Of a stretch of DNA of 62,946 bases, positions 11,017 to 27,445 are shown piece after piece. This DNA is from Pirellula sp. (GTDB lineage: Bacteria; Planctomycetota; Planctomycetia; Pirellulales; Pirellulaceae), in assembly GCA_031361585.1 (NCBI GenBank), contig JANLRK010000672.1, positions 1-62,946 on the forward strand. The letters run 5' to 3'. The translations under genes and the position numbers were made by a program. Below the pieces are notes generated by a model that was not told the DNA's origin, did no database searches, and was given only the letters and a program-made list of their open reading frames with translations. Position 1 is the stretch's first letter. Each line of letters opens with the position of its first letter.

Positions 11017-11363
11017 CGGGGTTCGGTGATCGTCGATTGAACACAAGGCTGCATTAGCATGTTTAATGACGGTCTCGACAATGTTCCTATTACGGCCTCG
11101 CGACGAGAAGGAGGAGCTATTACCAAGTTTGGCAGAAAAATGGCAGGTAAAAAATGGCTCCGAAGATTTCTTTGCTTTGGCTCCTGCGTTTGCCAACTAT
11201 CTTGTATCGATGCGGAGCCATCCTTGGCGATCGACGCTTCGATCACGTCTTTGTTTATCACAATGGAAGCCCAGTCATACTATGGTGCTAGGGGATTCCG
11301 AGGCTCGCTAAGGGTCTAGGTTCGCGCCGATCAAAGAGCCTCAGTTGCCATGCGGTTCGAGTT

Positions 11364-12053
11364 TCATAGTTTTGCATGAGGCAGAATAAGTGTCTTTCCA
11401 TCGAAACTGGATACCAAGCTTCGAATTGCATTCTCCTGCTCCTCTAGAGACTTTTCGGCAGCCTTTTTTACGCGTGCTTCGGCTTGCGAGAGAAAGATAC
11501 GTGAAATTAAAACATCCACAGTCATAGCCATTGATAGCTTCACTTCCGTCCCATGACTCGCTCGTACGGAATCCAGTGTTGTGTTGTAAGCTTTCAGTTC
11601 ACCAGCCGGTTGATCCGATACGGTATGAACTTGAATGCTATCTTGGTGGATTTGGCAGTCTTGACTTAGCAACAATTCGGTGGCGTTCACTTGTGGGTCG
11701 TTTAGTTGCACCGTTAGGCGTTTGATCGCGGAAACATTCGCTTTTGATTTGCCCCGTAACGCATTTCGGAGTGGACGGGAGTCATTTGACAGGTCAATGT
11801 CAACGGCATCGGTGTTTTCATGGATGAGTTTCATCCCGCTGTGTTCGAGTATGGCAGCGGTTGCATCTGTCCGAACGAGGATTTGCCGGAACTTATCGAA
11901 ATCAATGTCCATCGTAAAACTTCTTTCGGCGACGCCATGAACGGCATGTTCACTTCTGGAAAGCACCCATACAGCGAAGCCGATACCGCCTATGAGAGCG
12001 ATTGCAATCCACCAGCCGATGCCAATCGCGGCATTTCGAATCGGACTAATCAT
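11364..12053 (-). CDS. Hypothetical membrane-anchored protein
   Basis: 229-aa ORF with one N-terminal TM helix; preceded by a sigma54 motif. Confidence 0.7.
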   Translation of the reverse strand: MISPIRNAAIGIGWWIAIALIGGIGFAVWVLSRSEHAVHGVAERSFTMDIDFDKFRQILVRTDATAAILEHSGMKLIHENTDAVDIDLSNDSRPLRNALRGKSKANVSAIKRLTVQLNDPQVNATELLLSQDCQIHQDSIQVHTVSDQPAGELKAYNTTLDSVRASHGTEVKLSMAMTVDVLISRIFLSQAEARVKKAAEKSLEEQENAIRSLVSSFDGKTLILPHAKL

Positions 12054-12264: not shown

Positions 12265-12279
12265 GCGATTCGCGTGCCA
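12265..12279 (-). promoter_or_regulatory. sigma54 -24/-12 promoter motif
   Basis: Minus strand TGGCACGCGAATCGC = GG-N10-GC, pointing at 11364-12053. Confidence 0.7.
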
Positions 12280-12411
12280 TCACTGAGATCTCGATTCCAT
12301 TTTGTTAGGAATTGTCAGTGTCCGATGATTTTTAGACGGTATTTTCCTGAGGTATGAAATAGAACCGTTTTAGCGAGTCGTCAGAAATCAAGATGATCGC
12401 AAATCGAACGA

Positions 12412-14151
12412 TTACATCGCGCCCGGAACGGACAATCGCGATGTCGAAAGAAGAATGTACTTTCGTTGAATGGCGGCGAGAATCAGTGTTTTAGATTCCG
12501 CTACCGACATTTCGCCACGGCCTGCAATCAATTCCGTTTCTGCAGCGAGGTTCTCATCGTTAATACAATCCCGAAACCAATGGCTAAAGTCATTTCTCCC
12601 AAAGTGAAAAAGCCATGTCTCGTCGTCTATGCCCTCGGCCAATTGACAAAAGACAATTAGATTTTGAGCTCGTAGATTGAGCGACCCATTCGGACCTCGG
12701 AAGTAGAAGCATTTTTCAGCCGACAACTGCCCTTCCGCATACTTCCTACGATGTCTGTTATGTTCACGGTCACTCTTGAATGCGCGAAGCCGAAGTGGGC
12801 ATTTCGAATCGGCTATTTTCCAAAACCACACTTCGCCCACCTCCAAATGGGGCTCCGATAAATGAGGAGTATCCCTATTAGACCCAATTCCAAAATCAAG
12901 CATCGTTTGTTCAGCGTCTTGTCCTACAATCGCAACCACTTCGACACGTTGAACCACGGCCATCGGGAGCGAACTAGCATTGAGAGTAATAAGTACCACG
13001 TTTGTCCAATCGGCCGGCAGCAGTTCGGTCGGAGGTTTCCAATTAGCAGGCATCAAATGATGTGCTTCGTCTAAAATTAGCCAATGCGGTCGACCAGTTT
13101 TTGTTCGAAGCTGATTCAGTTGTCCGAGAAGTTGTAAGAAAAAGGTGGGGCGATCAGGGATTGCAATGCCGGTTAAGCAAATCACAACATTGGAATCGGG
13201 CCGTTCCAGAGCATGCATGGCCTCGTCAATTTGTGGCGCCGCGTTTGGCCCGCCCAATACGACTGCACCTTGGAATGATTCGAAGTCGCCCTCTGGGTCT
13301 ACGAGACAGAACTGACATTCATTCTCCATTACTGCATCAACAACTCGATTAGCCAACGTGGATTTTCCACTCCCTGAGGGCCCACAAATCAACACGGGAC
13401 CTCCAAAGGACGGTAAACACACTTCTTGATTATCACAAGTCCCAACCAACAGGCGGCGATTTCCAGTCAACTGTGGAAAGGAACTAAGATCACTATCGAT
13501 GATGTGATCGATCAGTTCAACAACTCCAGATCCATGGTCCTTCGTCAAAACGAGGTCCACAGCCGTCTTAAGCGCAGGCAGAGCATTTGCGGTGACCGCT
13601 GAGAACTCGCATTCTTTCAAAAACGCGTGGTCATTTTCCGCGTCCCCTACTCCGACCGTATTGTGGGTCGACAAACCCATCTCGAACAATACGCGGCGAA
13701 GCCCAGATGCTTTGTTTATTCCGGGAGGCAGGACCATGACAGCCCCTTTATTGAAAACGACATGAAGTTCCAAACCCAGATCGCGAATTGTATCCAAGAC
13801 AATGTTCTCGTGGGGGTGCCACGTAGCCACGATACACTGCCCGACGGAAATTCCGGCGACGCCTCGTTGCTTAAGCCTTTCAACAAAGGAGAGTGGTGCA
13901 GCTGCGCCCAGCAAGATTTCGCGATCCGTTGAGGGGTCGTACAATAAACCTCCATTTTCTGCGACGACCCAGTGAAATAAATTTAGCTCGACAAAGACTG
14001 CCTTGAGCGCGGGTAGTTCCCGCCCTGTAACCAATACCATTTTTCGACCTGAGTCCGCCAGTCGGTGTAGGGCGCTGACGGTGTCTTTATCTACGCGCCC
14101 GTTGTGCGCTAAGGTGCCATCAAAGTCCGTGGCTAATACGTGGTAGCGCAT
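12412..14151 (-). CDS. HAD-IIB hydrolase / P-loop ATPase (HerA/DUF87-like) / C-terminal DUF5752-like fusion; start reassigned to ATG 14151
   Basis: DFDGTL, VTGR, GINKASG, GVGDAEND (HAD); GPSGSGKST, VDPEGDF, LILDEAHH (ATPase); FYF...A.NL..F.......FH..RNDFS.W C-terminus; GGAG RBS before 14151. Confidence 0.85.
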   Translation of the reverse strand: MRYHVLATDFDGTLAHNGRVDKDTVSALHRLADSGRKMVLVTGRELPALKAVFVELNLFHWVVAENGGLLYDPSTDREILLGAAAPLSFVERLKQRGVAGISVGQCIVATWHPHENIVLDTIRDLGLELHVVFNKGAVMVLPPGINKASGLRRVLFEMGLSTHNTVGVGDAENDHAFLKECEFSAVTANALPALKTAVDLVLTKDHGSGVVELIDHIIDSDLSSFPQLTGNRRLLVGTCDNQEVCLPSFGGPVLICGPSGSGKSTLANRVVDAVMENECQFCLVDPEGDFESFQGAVVLGGPNAAPQIDEAMHALERPDSNVVICLTGIAIPDRPTFFLQLLGQLNQLRTKTGRPHWLILDEAHHLMPANWKPPTELLPADWTNVVLITLNASSLPMAVVQRVEVVAIVGQDAEQTMLDFGIGSNRDTPHLSEPHLEVGEVWFWKIADSKCPLRLRAFKSDREHNRHRRKYAEGQLSAEKCFYFRGPNGSLNLRAQNLIVFCQLAEGIDDETWLFHFGRNDFSHWFRDCINDENLAAETELIAGRGEMSVAESKTLILAAIQRKYILLSTSRLSVPGAM

Positions 14152-14345
14152 TTTAATTCTCCCAGTTTGACCAACTAACGTCATGCAACATTGGTCCGTA
14201 TTTGGACGCATGCTGCAACCACAGTGAAGGGTTCGCGTGTCAAACACCAAATGCATCTCGCGGACCATTCGACAAAGAAAGATAGATCTTCGTTTTTTTT
14301 GGACGAACAAACCATTGCGCGTGCTTCAGAAGAATAGGTAGTACT

Positions 14346-14360
14346 CGGCACAACGGTTGC
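14346..14360 (+). promoter_or_regulatory. sigma54 -24/-12 promoter motif
   Basis: CGGCACAACGGTTGC = GG-N10-GC, 60 bp upstream of 14421. Confidence 0.7.
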
Positions 14361-14420
14361 TTAGTCGGTAGAGTAGACCTTTTTTCTTTTTTTAACCTAA
14401 ATTCAACAGCGAGATGACTG

Positions 14421-14906
14421 ATGAGCGACCACAATGCGACCGAATTTTTAGACTTCTGTCGGAAATTCGACCATGCCATGCTGGTCACTCATAGCCCCCA
14501 AGGCCTCATTGCCAGACCGATGATGATTGCTGAAATTGATCCACTTGGTTACTTCTGGTTTTCCACGGACGTAGCTTCGGGAAAGGTGGAAGAAATCAAG
14601 AGCAATCCAGAAGTCTGCATCACTATGTCTGGAGCAACGGGACACGCAACGGTTCGCGGCAATGCGATTGTCGTTCAAGATCTAGCGAAGATCGTAGACC
14701 TATGGAGCGAAACCTGGCGCGTTTGGTTTCCCAACGGTCCCATTGATTCTAGCTTGGTCTTGATTAAAGTTGATGCAATGGAGGGGGAATTCTGGGCCAC
14801 TTCAGGCATTCAAGGATGGAAGTACCTATTTACAATGGTGAAGTCATACGTGCGGGGCGAACGACCAAAGGTGGATACTAGTGTGCATCGAGCAGTTAAA
14901 CTTTGA
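14421..14906 (+). CDS. General stress protein 26 / pyridoxamine-5'-phosphate-oxidase-like FMN-binding protein
   Basis: AMLVT, ARPM, WF.T...SGKVEEI..NPEV, LWS..W.VWFP.GP.D..LVLIKV....GEFW. Confidence 0.88.
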   Translation: MSDHNATEFLDFCRKFDHAMLVTHSPQGLIARPMMIAEIDPLGYFWFSTDVASGKVEEIKSNPEVCITMSGATGHATVRGNAIVVQDLAKIVDLWSETWRVWFPNGPIDSSLVLIKVDAMEGEFWATSGIQGWKYLFTMVKSYVRGERPKVDTSVHRAVKL

Positions 14907-14912
14907 TCGTTG

Positions 14913-17252
14913 TCAGTCAACTTTTAATAAATGTCCTGACGAGAGTCTTTCAAAAAAGTCTCGCAGTTTCGCGATGTCGACCGGCTTAACCATATGTTCG
15001 TTGAATCCCGAATCTCGGGATTGCTTACGATCCGACAACTGCCCATAACCCGACATTGCTACGAGGTATGTATTCGCAAGATTTGGCTGACTTCGAATCC
15101 TTGTCGCTAAGTCGTATCCCGTCATACCAGGCATTGAGATATCTGAAAAAACTACCTCGGGAGTAACCTCGGTTATCGACTCCAACGCGGAGAGACCGTC
15201 TTCCGCAACTCTTACGCGGTGCCCAAGTTTTTCTAAGAGTCGGGCCATAATCGTTCGCAATGCCCTCATGTCCTCAACGACGAGTACTTGGAAAGTGCGG
15301 TTAGCAATGGGCCATTCCTTTGTCGGCTCCTCTTCAATCGGCTCTACATGTACGTCTACCAGCGGAATCCGGACCGTAAAAAGACTACCCTGTCCAACTC
15401 CCTTGCTTTCCGCGATGACAGTACCGCGATGCAGCTCAACAAGTGTCTTGACAAGCGTCAATCCGATTCCAAGTCCGGCCTGACCACGGCCAAGTGAATC
15501 ATCTACTTGAGCAAACATTTGGAAAATCTCATCCAATCGGTCGGCTGAGATACCGATTCCATTGTCACTTATCGACAAGACGGCAGAGCCATGTTCGCCA
15601 TCCTCAGAGTCGACTGCCAGTGTTAGGTGTATGTCACCACCCGGATCAGTGTACCTCGATGAGTTGTTCAACAGATTTGTGACAACTTGAGTTATTCTGG
15701 CCGGATCAACGTTGACTTGCACTTCTCGGTCACAAATGTCCAGTTGCAGTTTCTGCCCTTTATCTTGAATGAACGTGCCGGATGCCTCGATCGCCGACTG
15801 GATAGCGGTACGTAAATCAACTATCTCTCGGTGGAGAATGATCTTTCCACGACCAATTCGCGATACGTCTAACAAATCATCGATCAACCGAATTACGTGG
15901 ACCACTTGGCGATCCAGCAACGCTCGTAACTCTTCATTCTCTGGGCTTAGCGAGGACATTGCCAGCAGATCAATTGCGTTTCGAATTGGAGCCAGCGGGT
16001 TTCTCAATTCATGTGCCAGAGTGGCCATAAACTCACTCATGCGACGACTCGATTCCGATTGCTTTGCAGCTAAGGCCACTAATTCATCCTCATCTCGCTT
16101 TTGTTCGGTAAGGTCTCGCATCACCTTACTAAAACCAACAACGTTACCCTGGCCGTCTCTGACCGCGCTCGTTATCCCCGACGCCCAAAAACGCGTTCCC
16201 CCTTTTCGCATCATCCAGCGGTCGTCGCTTGCGCTCCCTAACTCGGCTGCCGTTTCAAATTCAGTCCTGGGAATGCCCAGCTCGATCGCTTCGGGAACGA
16301 AAATCAATTGACGAATATCCTGGCCAATGAAGTCCGCTTCTTCGAATCCAAGAACTTCTAACACGCCGTTGTTCCAAGTGGTCGCGCGACAGTTCTCATC
16401 CATTGCAAAGATAGCATAGTCTTTCACTTGCTCGACGAACGAACGCATGTATTGATCCATGCGTCTGTTGTCTATTTCGAGACGGCGAATTCGATCCAAA
16501 CTAGCTTGCAATCGCATTTGTTCCGCGCGGATAATGTCCGCCGCTCGCTCAGCCCGTCTCCGATTATGTTGCAGTAGGTACACAACGCTAACTACCAAAG
16601 CTAGTCCTGCAATCGTTGAGACCATCCCCACCGCGAGAGCTGTCCAGTACGTTGCCGCTGCTGCCACCTCGCGTTCGGCCACGGAACGCATTTCCAATGC
16701 ACGGATGTCGCTAATTGAGGCATGAATCGAATCCATGGTTCCTTTTTCCAAATTGTTAGAAAAAAGCGATTGTGCCGCCGTGAAGCCTTCATTGCGACGA
16801 ACATCCATGGTCGTGTTGAGCTCCGTAAGTTTTTGCTCAATTTGCCCTTTCAAAGTCGCTAACTTGGACGACTCGAGTGGGCTAGTTCGCGTCAAGAGAA
16901 TTAATTCCGCTAGCTTCCCATTTATTCTCGGAACAGTCTCGCGATCGCGATCTGACAAAAATTCGCCGCCGATTAAAATGTATCCCCTTTGCCCGGATTC
17001 CGCGGACTGGAGCATCGATTCGATATTTTCAAGATTGGTTAGAAGTTTGTGCGACTCCTCGACTAAGTTCGTGTGCGATCGAAGTTGCTGTGTGTAATAC
17101 GAACCCGCGATTCCACTTCCAACTAGCAGTAAGACTACAGCACCGAGAGCAATGCGGTCACCCACGACACGACGCTGTTCGCCCCGAAGAAGATCTTCCG
17201 AAAGCTCAGCAGCCGTACTTGGCTCGCCTTGAGTTATTTTTGGATTTACCAT
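14913..17252 (-). CDS. Hybrid sensor histidine kinase (TM-CHASE3-TM-PAS-HisKA-HATPase-REC); start reassigned to ATG 17252
   Basis: SAESGQRGY (CHASE3), LAHELRNPLAPI, NLLNNS.RY, DNGIG, GLGIGL, VEDM/FSDISMPGMTG/KP; AGGAGG RBS. Confidence 0.92.
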   Translation of the reverse strand: MVNPKITQGEPSTAAELSEDLLRGEQRRVVGDRIALGAVVLLLVGSGIAGSYYTQQLRSHTNLVEESHKLLTNLENIESMLQSAESGQRGYILIGGEFLSDRDRETVPRINGKLAELILLTRTSPLESSKLATLKGQIEQKLTELNTTMDVRRNEGFTAAQSLFSNNLEKGTMDSIHASISDIRALEMRSVAEREVAAAATYWTALAVGMVSTIAGLALVVSVVYLLQHNRRRAERAADIIRAEQMRLQASLDRIRRLEIDNRRMDQYMRSFVEQVKDYAIFAMDENCRATTWNNGVLEVLGFEEADFIGQDIRQLIFVPEAIELGIPRTEFETAAELGSASDDRWMMRKGGTRFWASGITSAVRDGQGNVVGFSKVMRDLTEQKRDEDELVALAAKQSESSRRMSEFMATLAHELRNPLAPIRNAIDLLAMSSLSPENEELRALLDRQVVHVIRLIDDLLDVSRIGRGKIILHREIVDLRTAIQSAIEASGTFIQDKGQKLQLDICDREVQVNVDPARITQVVTNLLNNSSRYTDPGGDIHLTLAVDSEDGEHGSAVLSISDNGIGISADRLDEIFQMFAQVDDSLGRGQAGLGIGLTLVKTLVELHRGTVIAESKGVGQGSLFTVRIPLVDVHVEPIEEEPTKEWPIANRTFQVLVVEDMRALRTIMARLLEKLGHRVRVAEDGLSALESITEVTPEVVFSDISMPGMTGYDLATRIRSQPNLANTYLVAMSGYGQLSDRKQSRDSGFNEHMVKPVDIAKLRDFFERLSSGHLLKVD

Positions 17253-17482
17253 GCGAAGCCTCCTTTTTGTTTTTCGTAAGAACCGGCAAAAAAATGCTTG
17301 CCACTGAGTCGTGAAAGGTCGAACCATCCAAGGAATGGCAGATAATTTTGACACTTCTCGGCGAACGCCACCTCGGTGAAGCGGTTGTTGCGGACTAAGT
17401 CAAGCATTTCGTTGGTTGCCGAAGTAGGCAACACCTCCCTCGAAACCTTTACGAATAGCCATGTGAGATTCAAAATTAGGTG

Positions 17483-19390
17483 TCAAGGCATGACCGAGGC
17501 TAGTTCGTGTATCTCATTCTTTCCAATTGGATCAGCATCTGCAGCTCCTACGCTTTCAACAATCGCACTCGGAGATTGTATTGGATTCTCATCAGGCTCG
17601 TGAAGTGATAAAGCAGCATAACTGACAATGCGACACACGGAATGCAGGCGGTGCGAAGCGTATTCTACACCTGCCTCCTTTAGCCTCGTTCGCAGGCTGC
17701 CTGGGAGCGTCCGAACTCGCCAATTTCCGACTGCAATCCATCCAGTGAAACCCTCTTTTCGGAGTCTTTTGGCGAATCGTTCGATGAGTTCCCAAGGATT
17801 GTTCGGCAGTGAACTTATAAGAACAATGGAATAGTTGCCTTTCAATATCTGAAAGACCGTCTTTGCATCGAGGCTGTGGCCAAGTGACCACTTTATTTTA
17901 TGGTCAGAGACTTCTATCGCTCGGAGAGCTGCGTCGGTTCTGTTGCCGCATAGACTTATGCCAAAAGCCAGTGGTCCCTTTTGAAGTCTGGCCCCATCCT
18001 TTGATTCTTCTGGCTTGACTTCAGCGTTTGCTTGTGTGGAGACTGCAACTGCGTCATCCATCAGTTTCCAAATCAAACAATCATTGCGTTGATTCACTTG
18101 GCGATGCAATTCTGAAGTGATTACATTGCTCTTTAGCTCGCGGTCCGCATGAGCCATGCTTCGAATCGCAACTTTGTCTACCACAAACGGCAAGCCTCGT
18201 TTACTGCAGACCGATTTCAAAAGCGACTCAGCTTCATTGATATCGTTCGCCAATAGGCGTTGGAAATAGGCCAAATGATCGGGCAACGCCCGCGCATCCC
18301 CCAACAGAAAATCGAGCGATCGCAAATACGGTAGATGCCTCCCGAGTGTTGCAAGCATAAGGCTCAGCGGTGTAGCCATCATTAAACCGAGTGGTCCCCA
18401 GGCCCAAGTCCAGAACATAATTGCAATCAACAACGCAAATGGATTCATTCCGACGGATTTACCAAAGAGCAATGGCTCCACTAGATTGCATGTGATTACC
18501 TCCAAAGTTAAGTAGACCACCACGACGACCAGCGGTACGAGCCATCCCGGTAAAAAAAGGAGACTTACCGACAGCGGCAGAAGCATTGAGACAAAGCTGC
18601 CAAGCACTGGTACAAAACGAAAAACAAAGGTTACTGCGCCCCAGACGGCTGCATAGGGGACTCCCAAGGCAAACAACACAATTCCAAAGCAAACGGCAAA
18701 ACCAAAATTGACAGACACGAGACCTAAAAGATAGTTGCTCAATCGGCTCGAAGTCTCATTCACGATTTTCGTTACGCTCGTTAGGTGATGATTGCCAAAC
18801 ACCGCCAAGAAGCGGTTTCTGAGGTCCTCTCGGGAAATGAGCATGAATACAACCAAAACAATAACGACAACGGCGGAGGCGATTGGCTCCACGATCGGCA
18901 AAATGATGCTCGGAATGGATGTCAGCCAAGGCATCGTAGAATTTCCCTCAACGAGTGTCACCTTTTGAACATCGTTTGGTTCAACGGATGGATCGTTAAC
19001 ATCAATACTCCCCAACACTTCCTTGGAAATGTCGATGATTTGGCCGACTGTTGAACTTGACCCAGTTCGAAACCCCGACAACTTGGCTTCTATCTCGTGC
19101 TTGTGCTGTGGAAGTTCAGTAACAAGGCGATTCAATTGCGAAGCCAATTGCGCGCCCAAGAGCAAAGTGAGGCACGTGAGAAGTGTGACAATCAGACCAA
19201 CCGCCGTAATTCGACCCACCCCATGTCGTTCAAGCCAACGAACCACTGGCGTTAGAACAAATGCCAGGATGAAACTCAATGACAATGGTGCAAGCAAAGG
19301 CTTTCCCAAAAGTATGATGGAAATGGCCATGCAAAATATTGCCAATACAAGGAAGCTTCTACAAAGCGTTGAGTTTGCCGAGATTTTCAT
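17483..19390 (-). CDS. AI-2E family transporter with C-terminal soluble extension
   Basis: PL.LS.ILAFVLTPVV.WL, REDLRNR, RFVPVLG, NLVEPLLFG.SVG, W.W.WGPLGL..ATP. Confidence 0.88.
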   Translation of the reverse strand: MKISANSTLCRSFLVLAIFCMAISIILLGKPLLAPLSLSFILAFVLTPVVRWLERHGVGRITAVGLIVTLLTCLTLLLGAQLASQLNRLVTELPQHKHEIEAKLSGFRTGSSSTVGQIIDISKEVLGSIDVNDPSVEPNDVQKVTLVEGNSTMPWLTSIPSIILPIVEPIASAVVVIVLVVFMLISREDLRNRFLAVFGNHHLTSVTKIVNETSSRLSNYLLGLVSVNFGFAVCFGIVLFALGVPYAAVWGAVTFVFRFVPVLGSFVSMLLPLSVSLLFLPGWLVPLVVVVVYLTLEVITCNLVEPLLFGKSVGMNPFALLIAIMFWTWAWGPLGLMMATPLSLMLATLGRHLPYLRSLDFLLGDARALPDHLAYFQRLLANDINEAESLLKSVCSKRGLPFVVDKVAIRSMAHADRELKSNVITSELHRQVNQRNDCLIWKLMDDAVAVSTQANAEVKPEESKDGARLQKGPLAFGISLCGNRTDAALRAIEVSDHKIKWSLGHSLDAKTVFQILKGNYSIVLISSLPNNPWELIERFAKRLRKEGFTGWIAVGNWRVRTLPGSLRTRLKEAGVEYASHRLHSVCRIVSYAALSLHEPDENPIQSPSAIVESVGAADADPIGKNEIHELASVMP

Positions 19391-19483
19391 TAGACGATAC
19401 GGTTAAGGCTATGCATTGATCGATTTACCACCACCCTTGTTGTAACCAGGGGGTGGTATGTACCAATAAATGTCGGCAATCGA

Positions 19484-19657
19484 TTAAACTCCAGACCTTC
19501 TTCGCCCAGCGCCCGCGATCAAACTGACCGCAAACAGCACCAAGAAAAGAACAAACAGGATTTTCCCAATCGATGCTGCGCCTGCAGCGATTCCACCGAA
19601 TCCAAGTACAGCCGCGACGATCGCTAAGATAAAAAACGTGAGTGCCCAGTTTAACAT
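19484..19657 (-). CDS. DUF1328 (UPF0391/YtjA-like) small membrane protein; start reassigned to ATG 19657
   Basis: [35 protein letters not shown]; GGAG RBS. Confidence 0.92.
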
Positions 19658-19721
19658 TTGAGGCTCCAATACCAGTAAGGATAGTGTTCTTGAAACATTG
19701 ATTACCACCTCTACACGTAAG

Positions 19722-19736
19722 GCAATCGTCGTACCA
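19722..19736 (-). promoter_or_regulatory. sigma54 -24/-12 promoter motif
   Basis: Minus strand TGGTACGACGATTGC = GG-N10-GC, 65 bp upstream of DUF1328. Confidence 0.75.
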
Positions 19737-19888
19737 AGAGTAGACTAGAACCATTATTTGATTTGGTTGCATGATCATCGCACGTTTTGGTCAACGTTCT
19801 TCCTCGCTCGAAGTAAAAATGGTCGTTCATCGCGCACTTCGCTAGTTCTGGCACTGTTTTGCGACGTCGTTCCACCAACTGCCATTTA

Positions 19889-19903
19889 TGGCACGTCGAT
19901 TGC
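19889..19903 (+). promoter_or_regulatory. sigma54 -24/-12 promoter motif (consensus match)
   Basis: TGGCACGTCGATTGC matches TGGCACG-N4-TTGC; upstream of the csbD-like operon. Confidence 0.8.
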
Positions 19904-19996
19904 GATGAATGCTCATTGTGTGACCTACTGATTCGAAGTTACAAGAAATCGGATCAATACTGAATCAATACCAAGTTCAACGCAGGAGACATAGAG

Positions 19997-20422
19997 ATGA
20001 TTAATCGAGAACAGCTAATGGGCAATTGGAACGGCGTCGTTGGCTCAATCAAGGAGAAATTCGGTGAGTTTACGAAGGATGAATTGGCCAGGGTTGAAGG
20101 GAATTTTGAACAACTGGTTGGTCTCATTCAACGAAAGACAGGGAATAGTCGGGAGCAGATTTCCTCCTTTATTTCTGAATGCTGTGAGTCGGCCGGTACG
20201 ACATACAGCCAAGTTGCTAATCGCGCATCTCACTATGCGGACGCAGCAGGAGAAATCATTCGAGACAATTACGACCGGGTTGCCAATGAAGCCAAAAAGG
20301 GATTAGATTACACGGCTCAGAATGTCGGTCGTAGACCATTGGAGTCACTTGCGATTGCTGTTGGGTCTGGAATCTTGGCGGGACTCGTTCTTGGGATTTC
20401 CATGACAAGTCGAAAGCGATAG
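19997..20422 (+). CDS. CsbD-family stress protein with ElaB/DUF883-like C-terminal anchor
   Basis: GNW..V.G.IKEKFGE.T.DEL..VEG..EQLVG.IQRKTG; C-terminal RP..SLAIAVG.G.L.GL helix; AGGAG RBS. Confidence 0.88.
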   Translation: MINREQLMGNWNGVVGSIKEKFGEFTKDELARVEGNFEQLVGLIQRKTGNSREQISSFISECCESAGTTYSQVANRASHYADAAGEIIRDNYDRVANEAKKGLDYTAQNVGRRPLESLAIAVGSGILAGLVLGISMTSRKR

Positions 20423-20424
20423 CA

Positions 20425-20865
20425 ATGGAACCATCGAAGCCGACAGGCGATGTGGATGAACTGCTTGCCCGTATGCACCGAGTTCGTGCATCTGGCTACA
20501 ACCATGCCGGCGAGCTTCAAGGTGAAGCGATGCGTTTGGTGGATTGGAAGGAGTACGTTCGCTCCAAACCCCTGATGTCAATAGCGGTCGCTTCACTCGT
20601 TGGTTTTAGTGTTGTTCGGAGCACGCTTGGAACGACATCGCAGGTGAATCCTGCTTTTGCCAACAGCAACAGCACTTTAGAGAATTCAAAGCCAAGTAGA
20701 TCAAGTTGGAAAAGTGCAGCAATTGGCTTGATTGCGAATGTTGCGTCCACTGCCGCGAAACACTACTTGGCATCGTTTTTACAACCGCACAAATCAGAGG
20801 GAGGTTTCAATGATCGATTTCGCAACACAGGTTCGAAAGAACAGAGTATTCGATCCGCCCCGTAA
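20425..20865 (+). CDS. Hypothetical protein (stress operon)
   Basis: Starts 2 bp after the csbD stop; DWKEYVRSKP plus a hydrophobic helix. Confidence 0.65.
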   Translation: MEPSKPTGDVDELLARMHRVRASGYNHAGELQGEAMRLVDWKEYVRSKPLMSIAVASLVGFSVVRSTLGTTSQVNPAFANSNSTLENSKPSRSSWKSAAIGLIANVASTAAKHYLASFLQPHKSEGGFNDRFRNTGSKEQSIRSAP

Positions 20866-21031
20866 AGAAGAAGACAAACAATTAGATTCTGTGGTCTCAA
20901 GCGAAAATGACAGCGCCAAGTCGGACCTTTCGGATGTGGCGAGACGAGTTGTTTCGTCTAGTCCAGCAGCATGTGTTGCGTTGGCTTTCGTGTTTGGAGG
21001 GATCTTAGGATGGTTGACATGGAGAAGATAA
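20810..21031 (+). CDS. Small tail-anchored membrane protein (ElaB/YqjD-like C-terminus); start reassigned to ATG 20810
   Basis: GGAGG RBS; C-terminal P.ACVALAFVFGGILGWLTWRR. Confidence 0.7.
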   Translation: MIDFATQVRKNRVFDPPRKEEDKQLDSVVSSENDSAKSDLSDVARRVVSSSPAACVALAFVFGGILGWLTWRR

Positions 21032-21453
21032 ACCAAAAGTACCGACATGCAGATCCCGTGACTCAATTCACGGAAACGGCTGGTCGGTTTGCATGTGATC
21101 TTATGGAATTGACGGAACTCCAGGCTCGATTGTTCAAGGCGGACGCACGCTCCGTTTTAAGCAAGTCGCTTGGTGCTATCGCTCTGGGAGTGGTTGGATG
21201 CTCGCTATTGTTGGGTTCCATCCCAGTTGTTGTATACGGTTTATCATCAGCTGCTGCCTACTACTTGCAGATTGATGAGTGGGCAGCGCAACTTGCGGTT
21301 GGTGGCGGACTAGCATTATTGAGCTTAATACTCATTGTTGTGTCGTTCAGGATTTTGTCGAAATCCACAATGCAATTCCACCGCAGTACTGCTGAATTTT
21401 CGAAAAATATGGAATGGACAAAGGACGTCATTCGAAACGTCTCTGCAAAATAG
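21010..21453 (+). CDS. YqjE-like / 'phage holin family' two-TM membrane protein
   Basis: DL.EL.ELQARLFKAD followed by two TM helices; typical position in csbD/elaB clusters. Confidence 0.7.
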   Translation: MVDMEKINQKYRHADPVTQFTETAGRFACDLMELTELQARLFKADARSVLSKSLGAIALGVVGCSLLLGSIPVVVYGLSSAAAYYLQIDEWAAQLAVGGGLALLSLILIVVSFRILSKSTMQFHRSTAEFSKNMEWTKDVIRNVSAK

Positions 21454-21493
21454 TGTCTGTTTTTTTACTGTTAACTACTAGGAGTCAATTGAA

Positions 21494-21718
21494 ATGGCAA
21501 GATCTGCTAACGAACAGCGTATGGCTAAGTATCCCAGCAACATGGGAGACCACAAAGTCGTGACGAATTCATGTGAGACACAACTCGAAGACTTCGAGGT
21601 GCTTGTAGGAGACCTACGAGACTCGTTAGGAGAGTACTTGAAAAAACGTCCGCTTGTCTCCTCGGGACTGGTGTTTCTGGCAGGATTCTATGTTGGTTGG
21701 AAAATCAAACCTTGGTAG
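21494..21718 (+). CDS. Small ElaB/DUF883-like tail-anchored protein
   Basis: AGGAG RBS; EY.KKRP....LVFLAGFYVGWKIKPW tail. Confidence 0.7.
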   Translation: MARSANEQRMAKYPSNMGDHKVVTNSCETQLEDFEVLVGDLRDSLGEYLKKRPLVSSGLVFLAGFYVGWKIKPW

Positions 21719-21777
21719 TTCGCAATTAGCGAGCAACGATAACGAACCGCAGGGTAACGCGGTAACGCTGCGGTACT

Positions 21778-23688
21778 TTGCATCAGTTCAACCGAGGAGT
21801 TTTGACTTTGTGGCCTTGGATTGGATTTCTAATCTTCATTGTACTGATGCTGGCATTGGACCTTGGCTTGTTCAATCGCCGGCCACACGTTATCGGAATG
21901 AAAGAGGCACTTGCCTGGTTCGGTGTCTGGATAGGCCTAGCGATAGTTTTCAATATCGGCCTGGTGATATTCCATGAACGTGGCTTGGAGGCGGGACTGG
22001 AGTTTTTCACTGGATTTCTCGTTGAGAAATCCCTAAGTATCGACAATGTTTTTGTTTTCGTTCTCATCTTCAACTACTTTCAGGTGCCGCCTGTTTTCCA
22101 GCATAAAATCCTTTCGTTAGGGATTGTTGGTGCCATTGTTTTACGGCTGATCTTTATTATTGGAGGACTAGCACTTCTCCATCGATTCCACTGGACCATA
22201 TATCTCTTCGGTCTGTTCTTGCTTGGGACCGGACTGATGATGATGGTCCGACAGGAGAAAGAAATTGATCCGGGAAAAAACTGGGCTATCCGGACACTTC
22301 GCCGCTTTGTTTCGGTGACCGAAGGTTACGAGAACGCTAGTTTTTTCATTCGCAAAAACGGACGGCTATGGGCGACTCCTATGTTCATCGCGCTGCTGTC
22401 CATTGAAACTTCCGATATCGTTTTTGCCACGGATTCCATCCCAGCTATCTTCGCGATCACATCAGACCCCTTCATTGTGTTCACCTCGAATCTCTTTGCA
22501 ATGCTGGGGCTGCGGGCATTGTACTTTGCCGTCCAAGACTTCATGAAAATGTTTCATTTCTTGAACAAGGGATTCGCATTGATCATCATTGTCCTTGGCG
22601 TCAAGATGTTGATAAGCGATATTTACGAATTCCCTATTTCCTTCTCGCTTGTATTGATCGTATTCATTCTTTTGAGTTGCGTCATTGCATCGATTCTGCG
22701 GCCTCGCAAGTCGGATCTGAAGCAACTATTTGAACGAACAGAACAACTAGGTCTGATTCCATTTCGGCGACTGTTGTTGATCGAGAATATCATCGACCTC
22801 GGCGAACGCAAGGTAAGTGGTTCAATGCGATGCAAAAGTGGCGTGCACGTAATTCGTCTCGATGTTCCCTGGGCCGAAAATCTCCGAATGATCAGGGAAA
22901 CACACTATTCGCGATACCCTCTGGTTGAGGAATTAGGCAGTAAGCCGTTAGGTTTTATCCACATTAAGAGCATATCGTTCGACGACGCATTGGAATTCGC
23001 TTCCGCGGATCGACTGGTTCCTTTGGCTCGCAAATGCCTAGAAATGCCAGACGATTTGCCGCTTGAGGAAGCGCTGGGACTGTTCCAACGACGGTACGAT
23101 CGGTTGGCGCTCGTGGTCAATGCCAGTGGAGATTGGACAGGCATCCTGACTTTTGAAGATGTGGTACAAGAGATCATCGGTAACATGGGGGACGAATTCG
23201 ATCGAGCGCGTGCGGGCGATTTTGTATCGTTGGTCGACGCTCTAAGCCCTGGGCGCATCGTACTTGGTCTGCGAGCTGATTCAATGACCGAGGCGGTTCA
23301 AGAGTTCCTTGCATGCATCCCGAGGGAAGAACTTCCAATAGACGCCGCCGCAATTTCTCGAATCGTAATGCAGCGCAAAAAATTCATGCCAATGTATGTT
23401 GGAAATGGATTGGCTATTCCCCACGGGCGTTTCGACGGAATCGAACGTCCAGTGCTTGCCTTTGCGCGCTGCGATGAAGGGATACCAATTGAAGACTCGA
23501 ATGAGCGTGCAAGTCTGATCTTTCTGCTGTTGACACCAAGCCGATCAGCTCGACTGCAAACTCGTTTGATTGCTAATATCAACGGCCTATTCAAAAGCGA
23601 ATATGTCTCGGAACGCCTTCGCAAAGCACAGACCCCCGAAGCAGTAATAGAAGCAATCCATGCCGGCCAGCAGGTAGCCTTGGACTAG
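21778..23688 (+). CDS. TerC(Alx-type)-CBS pair-PTS EIIA domain fusion; start probably TTG 21802/21808
   Basis: LALDLG, EFFTGFLVEKSLSIDNVFVF, ETSDIVFATDSIPAIFAIT.DPFIVFTSN (TerC); HYSRYPL...GILTFEDVVQEIIG..DEFD (CBS); GNGLAIPHGR (EIIA phospho-His). Confidence 0.9.
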   Translation: MHQFNRGVLTLWPWIGFLIFIVLMLALDLGLFNRRPHVIGMKEALAWFGVWIGLAIVFNIGLVIFHERGLEAGLEFFTGFLVEKSLSIDNVFVFVLIFNYFQVPPVFQHKILSLGIVGAIVLRLIFIIGGLALLHRFHWTIYLFGLFLLGTGLMMMVRQEKEIDPGKNWAIRTLRRFVSVTEGYENASFFIRKNGRLWATPMFIALLSIETSDIVFATDSIPAIFAITSDPFIVFTSNLFAMLGLRALYFAVQDFMKMFHFLNKGFALIIIVLGVKMLISDIYEFPISFSLVLIVFILLSCVIASILRPRKSDLKQLFERTEQLGLIPFRRLLLIENIIDLGERKVSGSMRCKSGVHVIRLDVPWAENLRMIRETHYSRYPLVEELGSKPLGFIHIKSISFDDALEFASADRLVPLARKCLEMPDDLPLEEALGLFQRRYDRLALVVNASGDWTGILTFEDVVQEIIGNMGDEFDRARAGDFVSLVDALSPGRIVLGLRADSMTEAVQEFLACIPREELPIDAAAISRIVMQRKKFMPMYVGNGLAIPHGRFDGIERPVLAFARCDEGIPIEDSNERASLIFLLLTPSRSARLQTRLIANINGLFKSEYVSERLRKAQTPEAVIEAIHAGQQVALD

Positions 23689-23990
23689 ACTTTGCCGAAT
23701 ATAGCGCCTAAGGCGAGCGGCAGGAGTTGGTTTACCGTAGCTTTGGCCGCTGGCCCGAGTTTCGCACGGCCCAGGGGGCTAGGCTTCTGTACCAAATAGG
23801 AGAGTACGAGCAGGGCGAGTACTAGAGATCCTCATTTTTTCTTGAGTCACAAATAGTCCTAGGAGAAGGAATTTTTGCATTTGTAGTTGACGTCCCCCCG
23901 AGGATGTTTGTTACTCTGGATACCAGTAGAACTTAAAAACAGTCAGCTCTCCTCGCTTCGACAGACTTCACCTCGAGTCGATTAAGTAAA

Positions 23991-26657
23991 ATGCAGCCAA
24001 GCAAACAAAATAAATCTTGGGGCGCTAGTAAGATTGTTACCTACGTCGTAACGGTTGCCGCAGTGGCTGTGGCGGGTCTAATTCGCTGGCAGCTTGATCC
24101 ACTGTTGGAAGTCCGTCTCCCGTTCGCCACTTTCTTCGTCGCCATTATTTTTTCCGCCTGGTACGGTGGGCTTCCCCACGCACTTCTTTCCACCGTGCTG
24201 GGCTCCTTTGTCGTAATGTACTTTTTTATTCCTCCACGCTTTGCGTTGCCGTTTATGACGGCGGCGGATTTGGGAGACTTGGCCGTTTACTACATAGTCG
24301 GGCTTTCGATCGCCGGCTTCGCGGAGGCGCTGCGAATTTCGCAGCACGGATTCGCCGAGCAAGCGGAGCAAGTTAGGACGACGCTTGCCAGTATCGGCGA
24401 TGCGGTCATCACAACAGACATCAAAGTACGCATCACGAATATGAACGCCGTCGCCGAGTCGCTAACAGAATGGACCAACGCCAACGCGATTGGTCAACCT
24501 CTCGAAAAGGTGTTTCATATCTTAGATGCTGTCACGCGGAAGACGCTTGAGAACCCTGCCATCAGGGCATTGAGGGAAGGCGTCACCGTCGGTTTGGCGA
24601 ACCACACGATTCTCGTAGCCAAGGGTGGCAAGGAATATTACATTGATGATAGCGCCGCCCCGATCATAAATAAAGATGGCGAAGTCCGTGGCTGCGTGCT
24701 CGTTTTCAAGGACATAAGTCATCGCATGCAGGCCGAAAAGTTGATGCGAGAAAGCGAAGCCCGGAAGACAGCGATGTTCGAGGCCGCCCTGGACGGTATT
24801 ATAAGCATCAGTCAAGAAGGAACAATCATCGAGTTCAACGCTGCCGCAGAGCGCATTTTTGGTTTCCAACGCGCTGAGGCGATTGGTAAGGAACTCGCAG
24901 GGCTGATCATTCCGCCTGCGTATCGGGAACGTCATCGAAAAGGCCTTGCCCAATACCTCATTACCCATCAAGGATCGGTATTCAACCAACGACTTGAACT
25001 ATCCGCGATCCGTGCAAATGGTGAAGAGTTTCCTGTCGAATTAACGGTGACACCCATTCCCGTTGACGGCCCAGCTCAGTTTACCGCATACTTGCGTGAC
25101 ATAACGCAACGTAAACAATTCGAGAAAGCGCTTCGCGAAAGCGAAGAACGATTTCGCGCACTCGCTGACAATATTCCTCAGCTCGCTTGGATCGCTGATG
25201 CAGATACCGACGGTCAGATCCATTGGTTCAACCGAAACTGGTTCGAGTACACCGGGACCAATCTAGAGGAAATGAGAGGCCGTGGATGGATTGCGGTTCA
25301 TCATCCCGATCATGTCGATAGGGTGGTCCAGAAATTTTCACATCACGTCAGGGAAGGATTGGACTGGGAGGATACATTCCCATTGCGTGGCAAGGATGGC
25401 CAGTACGTTTGGTTCCTGTCACGTATGAAGGTCATTCGCGATAAATTCGGCCGGGTCGTGCGGATCTTTGGCACCAACACGGATATCACCGAAGCAAGGC
25501 GAACAGGTGAGGAACTGCGAAAGCTCACAGCCGAACTTTCGGAGGCCGATCAACGTAAGGATGAATTCTTGGCAACCTTGGCTCACGAACTTCGTAACCC
25601 ACTAGCGCCTATCCGCAATGGTTTGCAAGTTCTCGGTCTTGCGGGAGACGACAAAGTGACAAGCGAGGTTGTCCGCACGATGATGGAACGGCAGCTCGAG
25701 CAGATGGTGCGGTTGGTCGATGACCTTATGGATGTGAGCCGTATCTCTACCGGAAAAGTCGAACTCAGGAAAGAAATCGTATCACTGGCCACGATCGTGA
25801 ACAACGCCGTGGAAACCAGCCATCCACTAGTTGAGGAAATGCGACACGAACTCACTATCCAACTACCTGAAGCCACGATTCTGGTTGATGTCGACTCGAT
25901 CAGGCTGTCTCAAGTCATCATGAACCTGCTGAACAACGCCGCCAAGTACAGCGATCCTGGAAGTTGCATCCAGCTAACTTCCGAACGATCCGGAGGCGTT
26001 GTGGTGGTTTCGATCCGGGACACAGGCATTGGTATTGCAGCTGACCAGATACCCCATCTTTTCGATATGTTCTCTCAGGTAGATCACTCGATGGAGAAGT
26101 CGCAAGGCGGGCTAGGGATCGGACTCTGCTTGGCGAAGCGAATCGTAGAGATGCACGGCGGTACAATCGAAGCACGCAGCGACGGACTTGGCAAGGGAGC
26201 CGAGTTTCTCGTCCGACTCCCTGTTGTTGTTGAGAATACCGCGACGCATTTGCATTCAGAAGAACAAAAGCAAGTTATAAAATCAAATTTTCGCATTTTA
26301 ATTGTTGATGACAACAAAGACGGTGCAGGCACGTTATCCATGATGCTGAAGATCCTCGGCAACGACACACGCACCGCTTATGATGGCGAAGACGCGGTCA
26401 ATACAGCGATCGCATTTCAGCCCGATGTCATCTTGCTCGACATTGGTCTTCCAAAGTTGAACGGCTACGAAGTTTGCCGCCGCATCAGAGAACAAAAGAA
26501 CGGGCACAACATACTCGTTATCGCCCAAACCGGCTGGGGGCAGGAGGAGGATCGTCAACGCACACGCGACGCTGGATTCGATCATCACCTGGTTAAGCCG
26601 GTAGACATGGCCGTTTTGAGTAAAATACTTGCAGAATTTCAAAGCCAGAAATCATGA
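23991..26657 (+). CDS. Hybrid sensor histidine kinase (DUF4118-like TM, 3xPAS, HisKA, HATPase, REC)
   Basis: TM helices with AWYGG; SIGDAVITTD, FNAAAERIFG, HPD PAS motifs; LAHELRNPL, NLLNNAAKYS, GLGIGL, LDIGLPKLNG. Confidence 0.93.
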   Translation: MQPSKQNKSWGASKIVTYVVTVAAVAVAGLIRWQLDPLLEVRLPFATFFVAIIFSAWYGGLPHALLSTVLGSFVVMYFFIPPRFALPFMTAADLGDLAVYYIVGLSIAGFAEALRISQHGFAEQAEQVRTTLASIGDAVITTDIKVRITNMNAVAESLTEWTNANAIGQPLEKVFHILDAVTRKTLENPAIRALREGVTVGLANHTILVAKGGKEYYIDDSAAPIINKDGEVRGCVLVFKDISHRMQAEKLMRESEARKTAMFEAALDGIISISQEGTIIEFNAAAERIFGFQRAEAIGKELAGLIIPPAYRERHRKGLAQYLITHQGSVFNQRLELSAIRANGEEFPVELTVTPIPVDGPAQFTAYLRDITQRKQFEKALRESEERFRALADNIPQLAWIADADTDGQIHWFNRNWFEYTGTNLEEMRGRGWIAVHHPDHVDRVVQKFSHHVREGLDWEDTFPLRGKDGQYVWFLSRMKVIRDKFGRVVRIFGTNTDITEARRTGEELRKLTAELSEADQRKDEFLATLAHELRNPLAPIRNGLQVLGLAGDDKVTSEVVRTMMERQLEQMVRLVDDLMDVSRISTGKVELRKEIVSLATIVNNAVETSHPLVEEMRHELTIQLPEATILVDVDSIRLSQVIMNLLNNAAKYSDPGSCIQLTSERSGGVVVVSIRDTGIGIAADQIPHLFDMFSQVDHSMEKSQGGLGIGLCLAKRIVEMHGGTIEARSDGLGKGAEFLVRLPVVVENTATHLHSEEQKQVIKSNFRILIVDDNKDGAGTLSMMLKILGNDTRTAYDGEDAVNTAIAFQPDVILLDIGLPKLNGYEVCRRIREQKNGHNILVIAQTGWGQEEDRQRTRDAGFDHHLVKPVDMAVLSKILAEFQSQKS

Positions 26658-26796
26658 CGATTTCCCCATCTGTGCGCGGTAGATGAGACTGCTGCGATGA
26701 TCGAATGTCTACCAAGTTGGACTTAAAACTTCCAAAGAAGCGTTCCTGTTACTGATCCAATTGAAACAACCGTACAGCCCGACAGTGCCATTGTCT

Positions 26797-26829
26797 ATTC
26801 GAGAAGACCATTCGAGAAGACCATTCGAG
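26797..26829. repeat. 13-bp tandem repeat x2.5 (ATTCGAGAAGACC)
   Basis: attcgagaagacc attcgagaagacc attcgag read directly. Confidence 0.85.
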
Positions 26830-26865
26830 TGACCTTATTAAGTTTGGTTGAAATCGGATGGAATT

Positions 26866-26880
26866 TGGCGCAGCTTTTGC
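26866..26880 (+). promoter_or_regulatory. sigma54 -24/-12 promoter motif
   Basis: TGGCGCAGCTTTTGC = GG-N10-GC, 76 bp upstream of the yciF-like gene. Confidence 0.75.
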
Positions 26881-26956: not shown

Positions 26957-27445
26957 ATGCCACTTAACGACCTCGCGGACCTTTTTCAGGATGAATTGCG
27001 TGACATCTTGAGCGCAGAACGCCAACTTATCGAGGCTCTGCCAAAGATGGTGCAAAAGGCATCAAGCGATGATTTGAAACAAGCATTCGAAAAACATCTT
27101 GAGCAAACGCGCGTTCAAGCGACTCGAGTCGAGAATGCGTTTGCCGATACAGGCAAGTCTGCACGAGCTAAGACATGTGAGGCCATGAAGGGTCTGATCA
27201 AAGAAGCATCGTCCATGATGGAGGAAAAAGCCGCTGCAGACGTAATGGACGCCGCCTTAATTGCTTGCGCCCAAAAGGTTGAACACTACGAGATTGCAAC
27301 GTACGGGACTCTTTGCACTTGGGCGCGGCTTCTCGGCTACACGGAAGCTCTTGAATTGCTCAAGCTGAATCTTAACGAAGAAGAAGAAACGGACGAAGCC
27401 CTATCAGCACTCGCTGAGACCATCAATTCTGAAGCTCGAGCTTAG
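26957..27445 (+). CDS. YciE/YciF ferritin-like protein (DUF892)
   Basis: [56 protein letters not shown]. Confidence 0.93.

Follow-up and report, generated by a model that had tools for sequence, protein, structure and literature searches.

How the general-stress genes of a planctomycete are switched on is the question raised by a stretch of Pirellula sp. DNA of 62,946 nucleotides (assembly GCA_031361585.1, contig JANLRK010000672.1, positions 1 to 62,946 of the forward strand), hereafter the window. Between positions 12265 and 26880, genes of the CsbD, DUF1328, YciF and general stress protein 26 (GSP26)-like families are preceded by motifs of the −24/−12 type of sigma-54 (RpoN) promoters. The regulons of RpoS, SigB and EcfG use a dedicated sigma-70-family factor, which is controlled by proteolysis or partner switching. 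Sigma-54 promoters stay closed until an upstream-bound AAA+ activator hydrolyzes ATP. The motifs of the window feature as conserved sigma-54-type sites before csbD, DUF1328, yciF and GSP26-like genes and are, on balance, probably part of a general-stress regulon that would be opened by one activator via an upstream palindrome. Since stress genes lie behind conserved sigma-54-type promoters in this planctomycete and in many relatives, the response is likely switched by an ATP-driven activator and not by a dedicated stress sigma factor. General stress responses outside the RpoS, SigB and EcfG lineages are largely open, and here a testable circuit for a whole class can be given with its predicted parts named: promoters and their start sites, one activator clade, its Hpt partner and a binding palindrome.

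Sigma-54 sites in the window and before orthologous genes

The genome of the window (G000) comprises 7.56 Mb in 843 contigs and is 99% complete and 4.68% contaminated; the window is its contig C762. Its YciF has its closest named counterparts in Pirellulaceae and Pirellula genomes, which suggests a planctomycete of the Pirellulaceae type. Gene calls by an own codon model yielded 6544 genes. Families were assigned by Pfam cut-offs, and sigma factors and activators were additionally compared with NCBIfam cut-offs. Sites were scored by a sigma-54 matrix grown from consensus seeds on all contigs of this genome except C762.

The first-pass annotation of the window had placed five GG-N10-GC motifs and a weaker sixth in front of genes, and all six 15-mers are found there on the strands given. 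The site at 12265–12279 (− strand, 15.7 bits) lies 211 nt before an open reading frame (ORF) of 229 aa. A weak site at 14253–14267 (−, 11.0 bits, about 100 nt before a HAD-ATPase gene) diverges from the site at 14346–14360 (+, 15.2 bits, 60 nt before the GSP26-like gene). The second divergent pair consists of 19722–19736 (−, 18.1 bits, 64 nt before DUF1328) and 19889–19903 (+, 18.3 bits, 93 nt before the csbD operon); the latter carries the full consensus TGGCACG-N4-TTGC as the sole such instance in the window. The sixth site, at 26866–26880 (+, 18.0 bits), lies 76 nt before yciF. As judged by the gene calls, each site is intergenic and points at a gene start, and both divergent pairs are real. 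The score of 11.0 bits, versus 15.2–18.3 bits for the other five, agrees with the ranking of 14253–14267 as the weaker candidate.

The bare GG-N10-GC occurs 478 times in the window and is uninformative alone. The sites listed above carry the −24 GG and the −12 GC at exact spacing in a consensus context, which is what characterizes a sigma-54 promoter. The five strong sites are the only ones of at least 15 bits in the 62.9 kb. When the spacer of the matrix is shifted by 1 or 2, 0.36–0.41 sites of this strength are expected per 14.6 kb, and the excess has a Poisson P of about 5e-5 for an interval that was chosen after the fact. With a view to IHF or other bending sites between enhancer and promoter, which are frequent though not universal, the base composition of the stress promoters was inspected; their A+T content is 0.40–0.46, with no strong tract.

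Genome-wide, the consensus TGGCAC-N5-TTGC was counted in 4566 upstream regions of G000 and compared between strands, spacers and 10 shuffles. It occurs 18 times in sense orientation and three times in antisense, with a mean of 1.8 in the shuffles, and the same consensus with spacers of 3, 4, 6 and 7 occurs 0, 1, 0 and 0 times. The enrichment expected from the first-pass annotation is hence present and is tied to exact spacing and orientation. The matrix was trained on sense sites, which makes its own genome-wide counts of them circular in part; the consensus counts and the loci of relatives are free of this. In the range of 10–12 bits, about half of the genome-wide matches are background.

Conservation was counted as sites of at least 10 bits within approximately 300 nt of the start (400 nt for yciF), with altered spacers as controls; the relatives counted are kin and not independent, so the counts are descriptive. 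Before csbD, a site is present in 48 of 70 loci—scored from 76 matches outside G000—and in 39 of 48 genomes, versus 2, 2 and 2 loci with the spacer extended by 1 to 3. The long form of csbD, which is the form in the window, has the site in 34 of 37 loci (the split into forms is a manual count of the scan output). Within the genus, 29 of 30 csbD loci reach at least 10 bits (controls 4, 3 and 0). The GSP26-like gene is preceded by a site in 22 of 25 loci of the class, that of G000 included (controls 1, 0 and 0), and yciF in 12 of 16 loci, likewise including G000 and after three partial matches were dropped. For DUF1328, of which 30 of 43 matches were scored, the site is present in all five loci in the class, including one G000 paralogue, versus 3 of 25 loci from the phylum's other classes. 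The motif is thus conserved before csbD, GSP26-like, yciF and DUF1328 orthologues across the class, as had been anticipated. The site at 12265 is matched in both orthologues seen (13.8 and 14.5 bits), and the weak site at 14253 reaches at least 10 bits in five of nine genus loci including its own. Genes internal to operons were checked for sites of their own, and none was found before YqjE (0/12), the 74-aa ORF (0/9) or Hpt (0/18). In an alignment of eight DUF1328–csbD intergenic regions of the genus, column conservation is 0.86 at the DUF1328 site and 0.91 at the csbD site, versus 0.60 in the rest, and the conservation of sites holds in loci of 40–70% GC. On this comparative evidence, the sites of the window are very probably working sigma-54 promoters.

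Further strong sites of the genome precede PfpI, DUF3309, DUF4142, DUF2171, YihY, DUF1003, AI-2E, Usp and Hpt genes and a BON-YflT-CsbD run, as annotated for 61 proteins from 20 stretches that were picked around strong sites. Strong sites also occur before transport genes and before genes that read, by sequence, as P-II and CsrA-like.

Named yciF loci of the class and beyond it (n = 80) were scored as well. Sites are present in 11 of 16 loci of Planctomycetia and one of two of Phycisphaerae; in other phyla, the counts are 0/7 in Bacteroidota, 0/9 in Verrucomicrobiota, 3/24 in Acidobacteriota, 4/14 in Gemmatimonadota, 3/4 in Chloroflexota and 0 in four single loci. The sites before yciF of some Chloroflexota, Acidobacteriota, Gemmatimonadota and Tepidisphaeraceae score 12–17 bits and lack the planctomycete palindrome described below (L160, L191, L192, L198, L199, L201, L217).

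A candidate activator and an upstream palindrome

The first-pass annotation had tied its reading to the presence of rpoN. The genome carries one rpoN and approximately 14 sigma-54 enhancer-binding proteins alongside; the exact GAFTGA motif is present in 7 of the 14 activators checked. One of them, a receiver-AAA+-helix-turn-helix (HTH) protein with GAFTGA encoded at positions 11156–12706 of contig C316 (G000:C316:11156-12706), is the likely switch for the stress promoters, as judged by its sequence and neighborhood. Domain annotation assigns its HTH to HTH_8 (Fis-type). The protein scores below the NCBIfam cut-offs of NtrC, AtoC, ZraR, NtrX and LuxO and passes none of the 25 best models shown (458 of 559 bits for ntrC). 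The island around its gene (L002, L003) holds eight sites of at least 14 bits in 30 kb, a CheB-CheR-PAS hybrid kinase and an Hpt gene, together with MscS, BON-YflT-CsbD, DUF4142, DUF2171 and AI-2E genes, and is denser in sites than the window.

Neighborhoods of approximately 19 kb were collected around 40 of the class matches to this protein, and a tree was built by a quick method. Of the 26 loci in the clade to which the G000 protein belongs, 19 lie no more than about 9 kb from csbD, DUF1328, yciF, DUF3309 or Dps-type genes; two of the remaining loci have Hpt alone and five have none, and outside the clade none of 15 loci has any. An Hpt gene adjoins the activator in 15 of the 26 clade loci, an arrangement which we take to resemble the LuxU–LuxO relay. 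In three genomes of the same genus (G010, G021, G009), the activator lies about 5 kb from csbD. Misbinning of C316 was considered and set aside: four genomes of the same genus have orthologues of 71–88% identity, a fifth has a split copy, and in the three genomes just named the orthologue is close to csbD. In the quick tree, the C316 activator groups with proteins of family f18 and not with those of its own order, which may mean transfer. That this activator clade drives the csbD/DUF1328/yciF group is fairly probable.

A candidate binding site for the activator was sought in 89 non-redundant stress promoters by dyad counts and random-start expectation–maximization. This yielded the palindrome TG(A/G)TCG-N5-CGA(C/T)CA, which mostly lies 60–200 nt upstream, with a log-likelihood of 113–131 versus 65–79 on shuffles. 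When the palindrome was relearned without the lineage under test, it was recovered at p ≤ 0.05 in 11 of 25 promoters of f18 and in 15 of 46 of Pirellulales and named loci. It is present in 21 of 49 promoters from genomes with the activator versus 0 of 10 from genomes in which the activator was not found or is represented by the sister clade only; the other 30 of the 89 promoters belong to genomes that could not be classed for the activator.

Three candidate activator-binding palindromes, to which no strand is assigned, lie in the window. The one at 19818–19838 (11 bits, by a matrix trained without assignable loci of the genus) is common to the divergent DUF1328 and csbD promoters, and its conservation in the eight genus sequences is 0.85 versus 0.60 in the rest of the intergenic region. 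A second one, at 26696–26716 (10.1 bits), lies 160 nt upstream of the yciF promoter and has a held-out p of 0.13 when taken alone. The third one, at 14413–14433 (13.9 bits), spans the start codon of the GSP26-like gene, lies 156 nt upstream of the 14253 site and is conserved in one close relative. Aligning the promoter regions of csbD and yciF pairwise revealed nothing.

The palindrome scores low at the clpB, clpC, groEL and hsp20 promoters of G000. These genes feature sigma-54 sites of 16.8–22.3 bits (L005, L007, L010, L018), and the clpB site is present in 8 of 30 loci of the class. Because sigma-54 sites occur there without the palindrome, the chaperone genes would form a separate sigma-54 branch. 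As a mark of all sigma-54 stress promoters, the palindrome is ruled out by its counts before GSP26-like (4/22) and clpB (0/8) genes, before yciF of other phyla or classes (0/11) and in families f84 and f86 (1/18).

The mechanism that these parts suggest is as follows. Sigma-54 holoenzyme would be held as a closed complex at the csbD, DUF1328, yciF and GSP26-like sites. Hybrid kinases—two in the window and the CheB-CheR-PAS kinase beside the activator—would pass phosphate via the neighboring Hpt protein to the receiver of the activator, which would then bind the palindrome and open the promoters at the expense of ATP when cells meet osmotic stress, desiccation or starvation. At the divergent DUF1328/csbD pair, a single palindrome may serve both arms. 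The csbD/DUF1328/yciF group fairly probably behaves as a multi-stress response.

Known stress systems and rival drivers

In what it is predicted to do, the system resembles a general stress regulon; it falls outside the RpoS, SigB and EcfG kinds, and its components are those of an NtrC-type sigma-54 regulon. With the RpoS regulon of Gammaproteobacteria, the SigB regulon of Bacillota and the EcfG-NepR-PhyR regulon of Alphaproteobacteria it shares targets, namely CsbD/YjbJ, YtjA/DUF1328, YciF, GSP26-like, YqjE-like, PfpI, BON/OsmY-like, YflT and YihY proteins. Unlike in those systems, the planctomycete promoters are of the −24/−12 type and need an AAA+ activator, and no SigB, RpoH or NepR was found over cut-off. 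With NtrC-family regulons (NtrBC, ZraSR, AtoSC, LuxO) it has in common the receiver-AAA+-HTH_8 architecture with GAFTGA, the −24/−12 sites, an upstream palindrome as candidate binding site and the neighboring kinase and Hpt genes; unlike in these, the targets are scattered general-stress genes instead of a single pathway, and the palindrome is peculiar to this system.

Five non-extracytoplasmic function (ECF) sigma-70 proteins are encoded in the genome: three RpoD-like proteins, one FliA and one group-2 sigma factor of 307 aa (G000:C415; L074:1091-2014). The best model for the latter is RpoS, with 266 bits and hence below the cut-off of 378.7. No sigma factor of the genome passes the cut-offs of RpoS, SigB or RpoH, NepR was not found over cut-off, and the one PhyR_sigma2 match over cut-off is an ORF of 178 aa that reads as an ECF sigma factor. 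A search of the 89 stress promoters for RpoS-, SigB- and EcfG-type elements gave no enrichment. Family f84 often has a second, more distant group-2 copy, one of which lies 2 kb from a csbD without a site in G231.

The Borrelia Rrp2-RpoN-RpoS cascade likewise places sigma-54 and an activator atop a global adaptive response. Unlike that route, in which RpoN reportedly works by way of rpoS, the planctomycete stress genes have sigma-54 sites immediately in front of them. A cascade of this kind through the group-2 sigma factor is ruled out, as none of 25 group-2 sigma loci has a site of at least 10 bits. One of the three RpoD-like paralogues (G000:C229:8186-9844, − strand; L071:1195-2853) does carry a sigma-54 site upstream, of 17.0 bits. 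Within the order, GG[CT][AG][CT]-N6-TGC precedes this paralogue in 28 of 29 loci (L429-L457), versus 0–3 with other spacers, which suggests a conserved cascade from sigma-54 to an RpoD paralogue in Pirellulales. The accessible part of PMC3162934 makes no mention of planctomycetes.

What is already in print, as far as the sources are accessible, comprises a passing suggestion of 2009 and an in-silico regulon of 2025 that names chaperones, Usp and MscS. The promoter list of Studholme and Dixon 2004, reportedly a list of predicted promoters that Wecker et al. 2009 cite, may include some of the genes. Wecker et al. 2009 (PMC2754498) found for Rhodopirellula baltica that heat, cold and salt induce a Dps gene and a pyridoxamine-oxidase gene of a 'general stress cluster'. 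One sentence there suggests rpoN control and rests on one predicted promoter, that of thioredoxin RB10378; unlike here, the accessible part of that account gives no regulon, conservation, activator or palindrome. The regulon of sigma-54 that was derived in silico for Planctomycetia (Carrera-Reyna, Cruz-Flores and Merino 2025, PMC12316311) holds predicted sites before GroEL, IbpA, ATP-dependent protease, UspA, MscS and CsrA genes, which are also seen in G000. 'General stress' and 'CsbD' do not occur in its main text, CsbD, DUF1328 and YciF do not occur in 11 supplementary files, and the accessible part names no activator or palindrome for such genes. Six COG numbers were not found in the supplements either; this is a weak negative because the files may not hold per-COG tables. 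A full-text literature search, which mostly did not extend to subscription papers, found no title or abstract that describes a general stress regulon with these genes under sigma-54 control.

Several points weigh against a single sigma-54 switch. The palindrome reaches at least 10 bits in just 15 of 113 sigma-54 promoters of G000, with a background of 2.7% of 2079 regions; in the held-out test at p ≤ 0.05 it is present in just one of the 18 promoters of families f84 and f86, and the four hits among 22 GSP26-like promoters include three from one genus. Among the sites of the window, 12265 has just a weak match to it, and 14346 has none upstream. The short form of csbD has the sigma-54 site in just 14 of 33 loci. 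Six genomes (G208, G231, G205, G243, G225, G235) yielded no close orthologue of the activator; because csbD keeps a strong site of 14.5–18.4 bits in these, other activators must serve there. The basal support of the activator clade is weak (Shimodaira–Hasegawa-like approximate likelihood ratio 83–86), and one long-branched paralogue inside it was left uncounted. The group-2 sigma factor turned up in every one of the 101 class genomes searched, with best matches of about 67–77% identity. In R. baltica, rpoN mRNA is down under salt and unchanged under heat (PMC2754498, as far as accessible). Orthologue counts overstate because kin are not independent, and all the support is comparative. The proposal of the first-pass annotation—that the general-stress regulon may be wired to RpoN and an enhancer-binding protein—is supported by enrichment, conservation, rpoN and the candidate activator and palindrome, yet to speak of the general-stress regulon is somewhat too strong, given the ubiquitous group-2 sigma factor and a palindrome at part of the stress promoters.

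An unlikely alternative, though the likeliest of the rivals, is that the promoters are real with no single general-stress switch behind them, sigma-54 being broad-purpose and served by several activators with different signals. Such an arrangement would fit the approximately 14 activators of the genome, the strong sites before chaperone, P-II, CsrA-like and transport genes, the minority of promoters with the palindrome, the promoters of the six genomes in which the activator was not found and the wide in-silico regulon reported for the class in the accessible part of PMC12316311; it sits poorly with one clade, and no paralogue, adjoining the stress genes (19/26 versus 0/15) and with a palindrome that tracks this clade. 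The group-2 sigma factor is the main rival driver. It is improbable that this RpoS-like factor or an ECF sigma factor drives the genes, with the sigma-54 sites secondary or acting as closed complexes that stay silent or repress: in the 89 promoters, RpoS-type −10 elements are fewer than in shuffles (6 versus 18), EcfG/ECF patterns do not exceed the shuffle maximum, and the sigma-54 sites lie at a typical distance from starts, together with the palindrome and a linked activator. In favor of this driver are its presence in all 101 genomes, the 19 of 33 short csbD loci without a site, the second group-2 copy beside the site-less csbD of G231 and the ECF sigma factors that are stress-induced in R. 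baltica (PMC2754498, in its accessible part).

Just as improbable is a regulon that marks a life-cycle or dormancy stage, for example of settling or ageing cells, and not a cross-protective stress response. Sigma-54 drives developmental programs in Myxococcus and Chlamydia; in addition, two of the six downstream genes belong to no stress family, and the conserved site before one RpoD-like paralogue would be in line with a stage switch. Against this, the gene set matches the RpoS, SigB and EcfG regulons, and related genes are up under three different stresses in R. baltica (PMC2754498, in the part accessible). Coincidental matches, or recognition by some other DNA-binding protein whose site looks like that of sigma-54, have next to no likelihood left: frequent as bare GG-N10-GC is in the window, and although about half of the 10–12 bit matches are background, this explanation is largely refuted by the dependence on exact spacer and strand, by the footprint and by conservation over the range of 40–70% GC.

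The preferred reading, one activator acting on sigma-54 stress promoters, can be extended to a tentative generalization, which is slightly more likely to fail than to hold. Planctomycetia would have a fourth kind of general stress response without a dedicated stress sigma factor, in which a multi-kinase Hpt phosphorelay feeds one sigma-54 activator that opens pre-loaded csbD, ytjA, yciF and dozens of small genes; sigma-54 would also feed the chaperone branch and the RpoD-like paralogue, and the logic would recur in scattered soil phyla. If true, the role of sigma-54 widens from a pathway-specific switch to a master of stress survival, and a sequence rule becomes available for placing small unknown genes in the stress response. 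Several cultured planctomycetes are genetically tractable.

Genes of the region and further observations

The stress families named in the first-pass annotation largely stand: CsbD, DUF1328, DUF892/YciF, PF16242 and PF07332 pass Pfam cut-offs and lie behind four of the sites. For ElaB/YqjD, the assignment is weak, as DUF883_C stays below cut-off (E 0.005 for the CsbD C-terminus and 0.06 for the 146-aa ORF, with no match for the 74-aa ORF), and the genes behind 12265 and 14253 are not of classical general-stress families. The former, the 229-aa ORF (11364–12053, − strand), has an N-terminal hydrophobic segment and no Pfam family; a lead to START/polyketide-cyclase-like proteins is weak, with best named matches below 0.9. 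The latter (12412–14151, −) encodes, by Pfam, a fusion of a HAD-IIB hydrolase with a P-loop ATPase domain. This fusion is patchy in the genus (10 of 60 genomes) and often lies near the csbD locus.

The remaining assignments likewise follow Pfam. The PF16242 pyridoxamine-oxidase-like protein (14421–14906, +) is the GSP26-like one, which we take to be of the general stress protein 26 type. It is followed by a hybrid histidine kinase of the architecture CHASE3-PAS-HisKA-HATPase-receiver (14913–17252, −), which has no sigma-54 site of its own. DUF1328 (19484–19657, −) is a membrane protein of 57 aa of the YtjA/UPF0391 type, and an AI-2E family transporter (17483–19330, −) lies downstream on the same strand and may be co-transcribed. 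The CsbD-domain protein (19997–20422, +) has 141 aa and a weakly DUF883-like C-terminus. Three genes at 20425–21718 (+) likely belong to its operon: a 146-aa ORF, a PF07332 membrane protein (21010–21453), presumably of the YqjE type, and a 74-aa ORF; they accompany csbD across loci and have no sigma-54 sites of their own. A TerC-CBS-PTS EIIA fusion (21808–23688, +) possibly forms the end of this operon. A second hybrid histidine kinase, DUF4118-PAS(x3)-HisKA-HATPase-receiver (23991–26657, +), precedes the YciF/DUF892 ferritin-like protein (26957–27445, +). Both kinases are possible phosphorelay inputs, as far as their domains and positions suggest.

Elsewhere in the genome, very small charged low-complexity ORFs of approximately 60–100 aa, with repeated paralogues and some Rho_N-like, lie behind strong sites (C81, C316, C596, C79, C220, C539). 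The loci on C79 and C539 carry the palindrome with at least 11 bits, and the proteins may be undescribed stress proteins. In the window, a second TerC-like ORF at about 50792–51508, its family read from sequence only, has a 13-bit site 19 nt upstream, and the ORF at 205–1680, at the contig end, reads like an IS4-family transposase.

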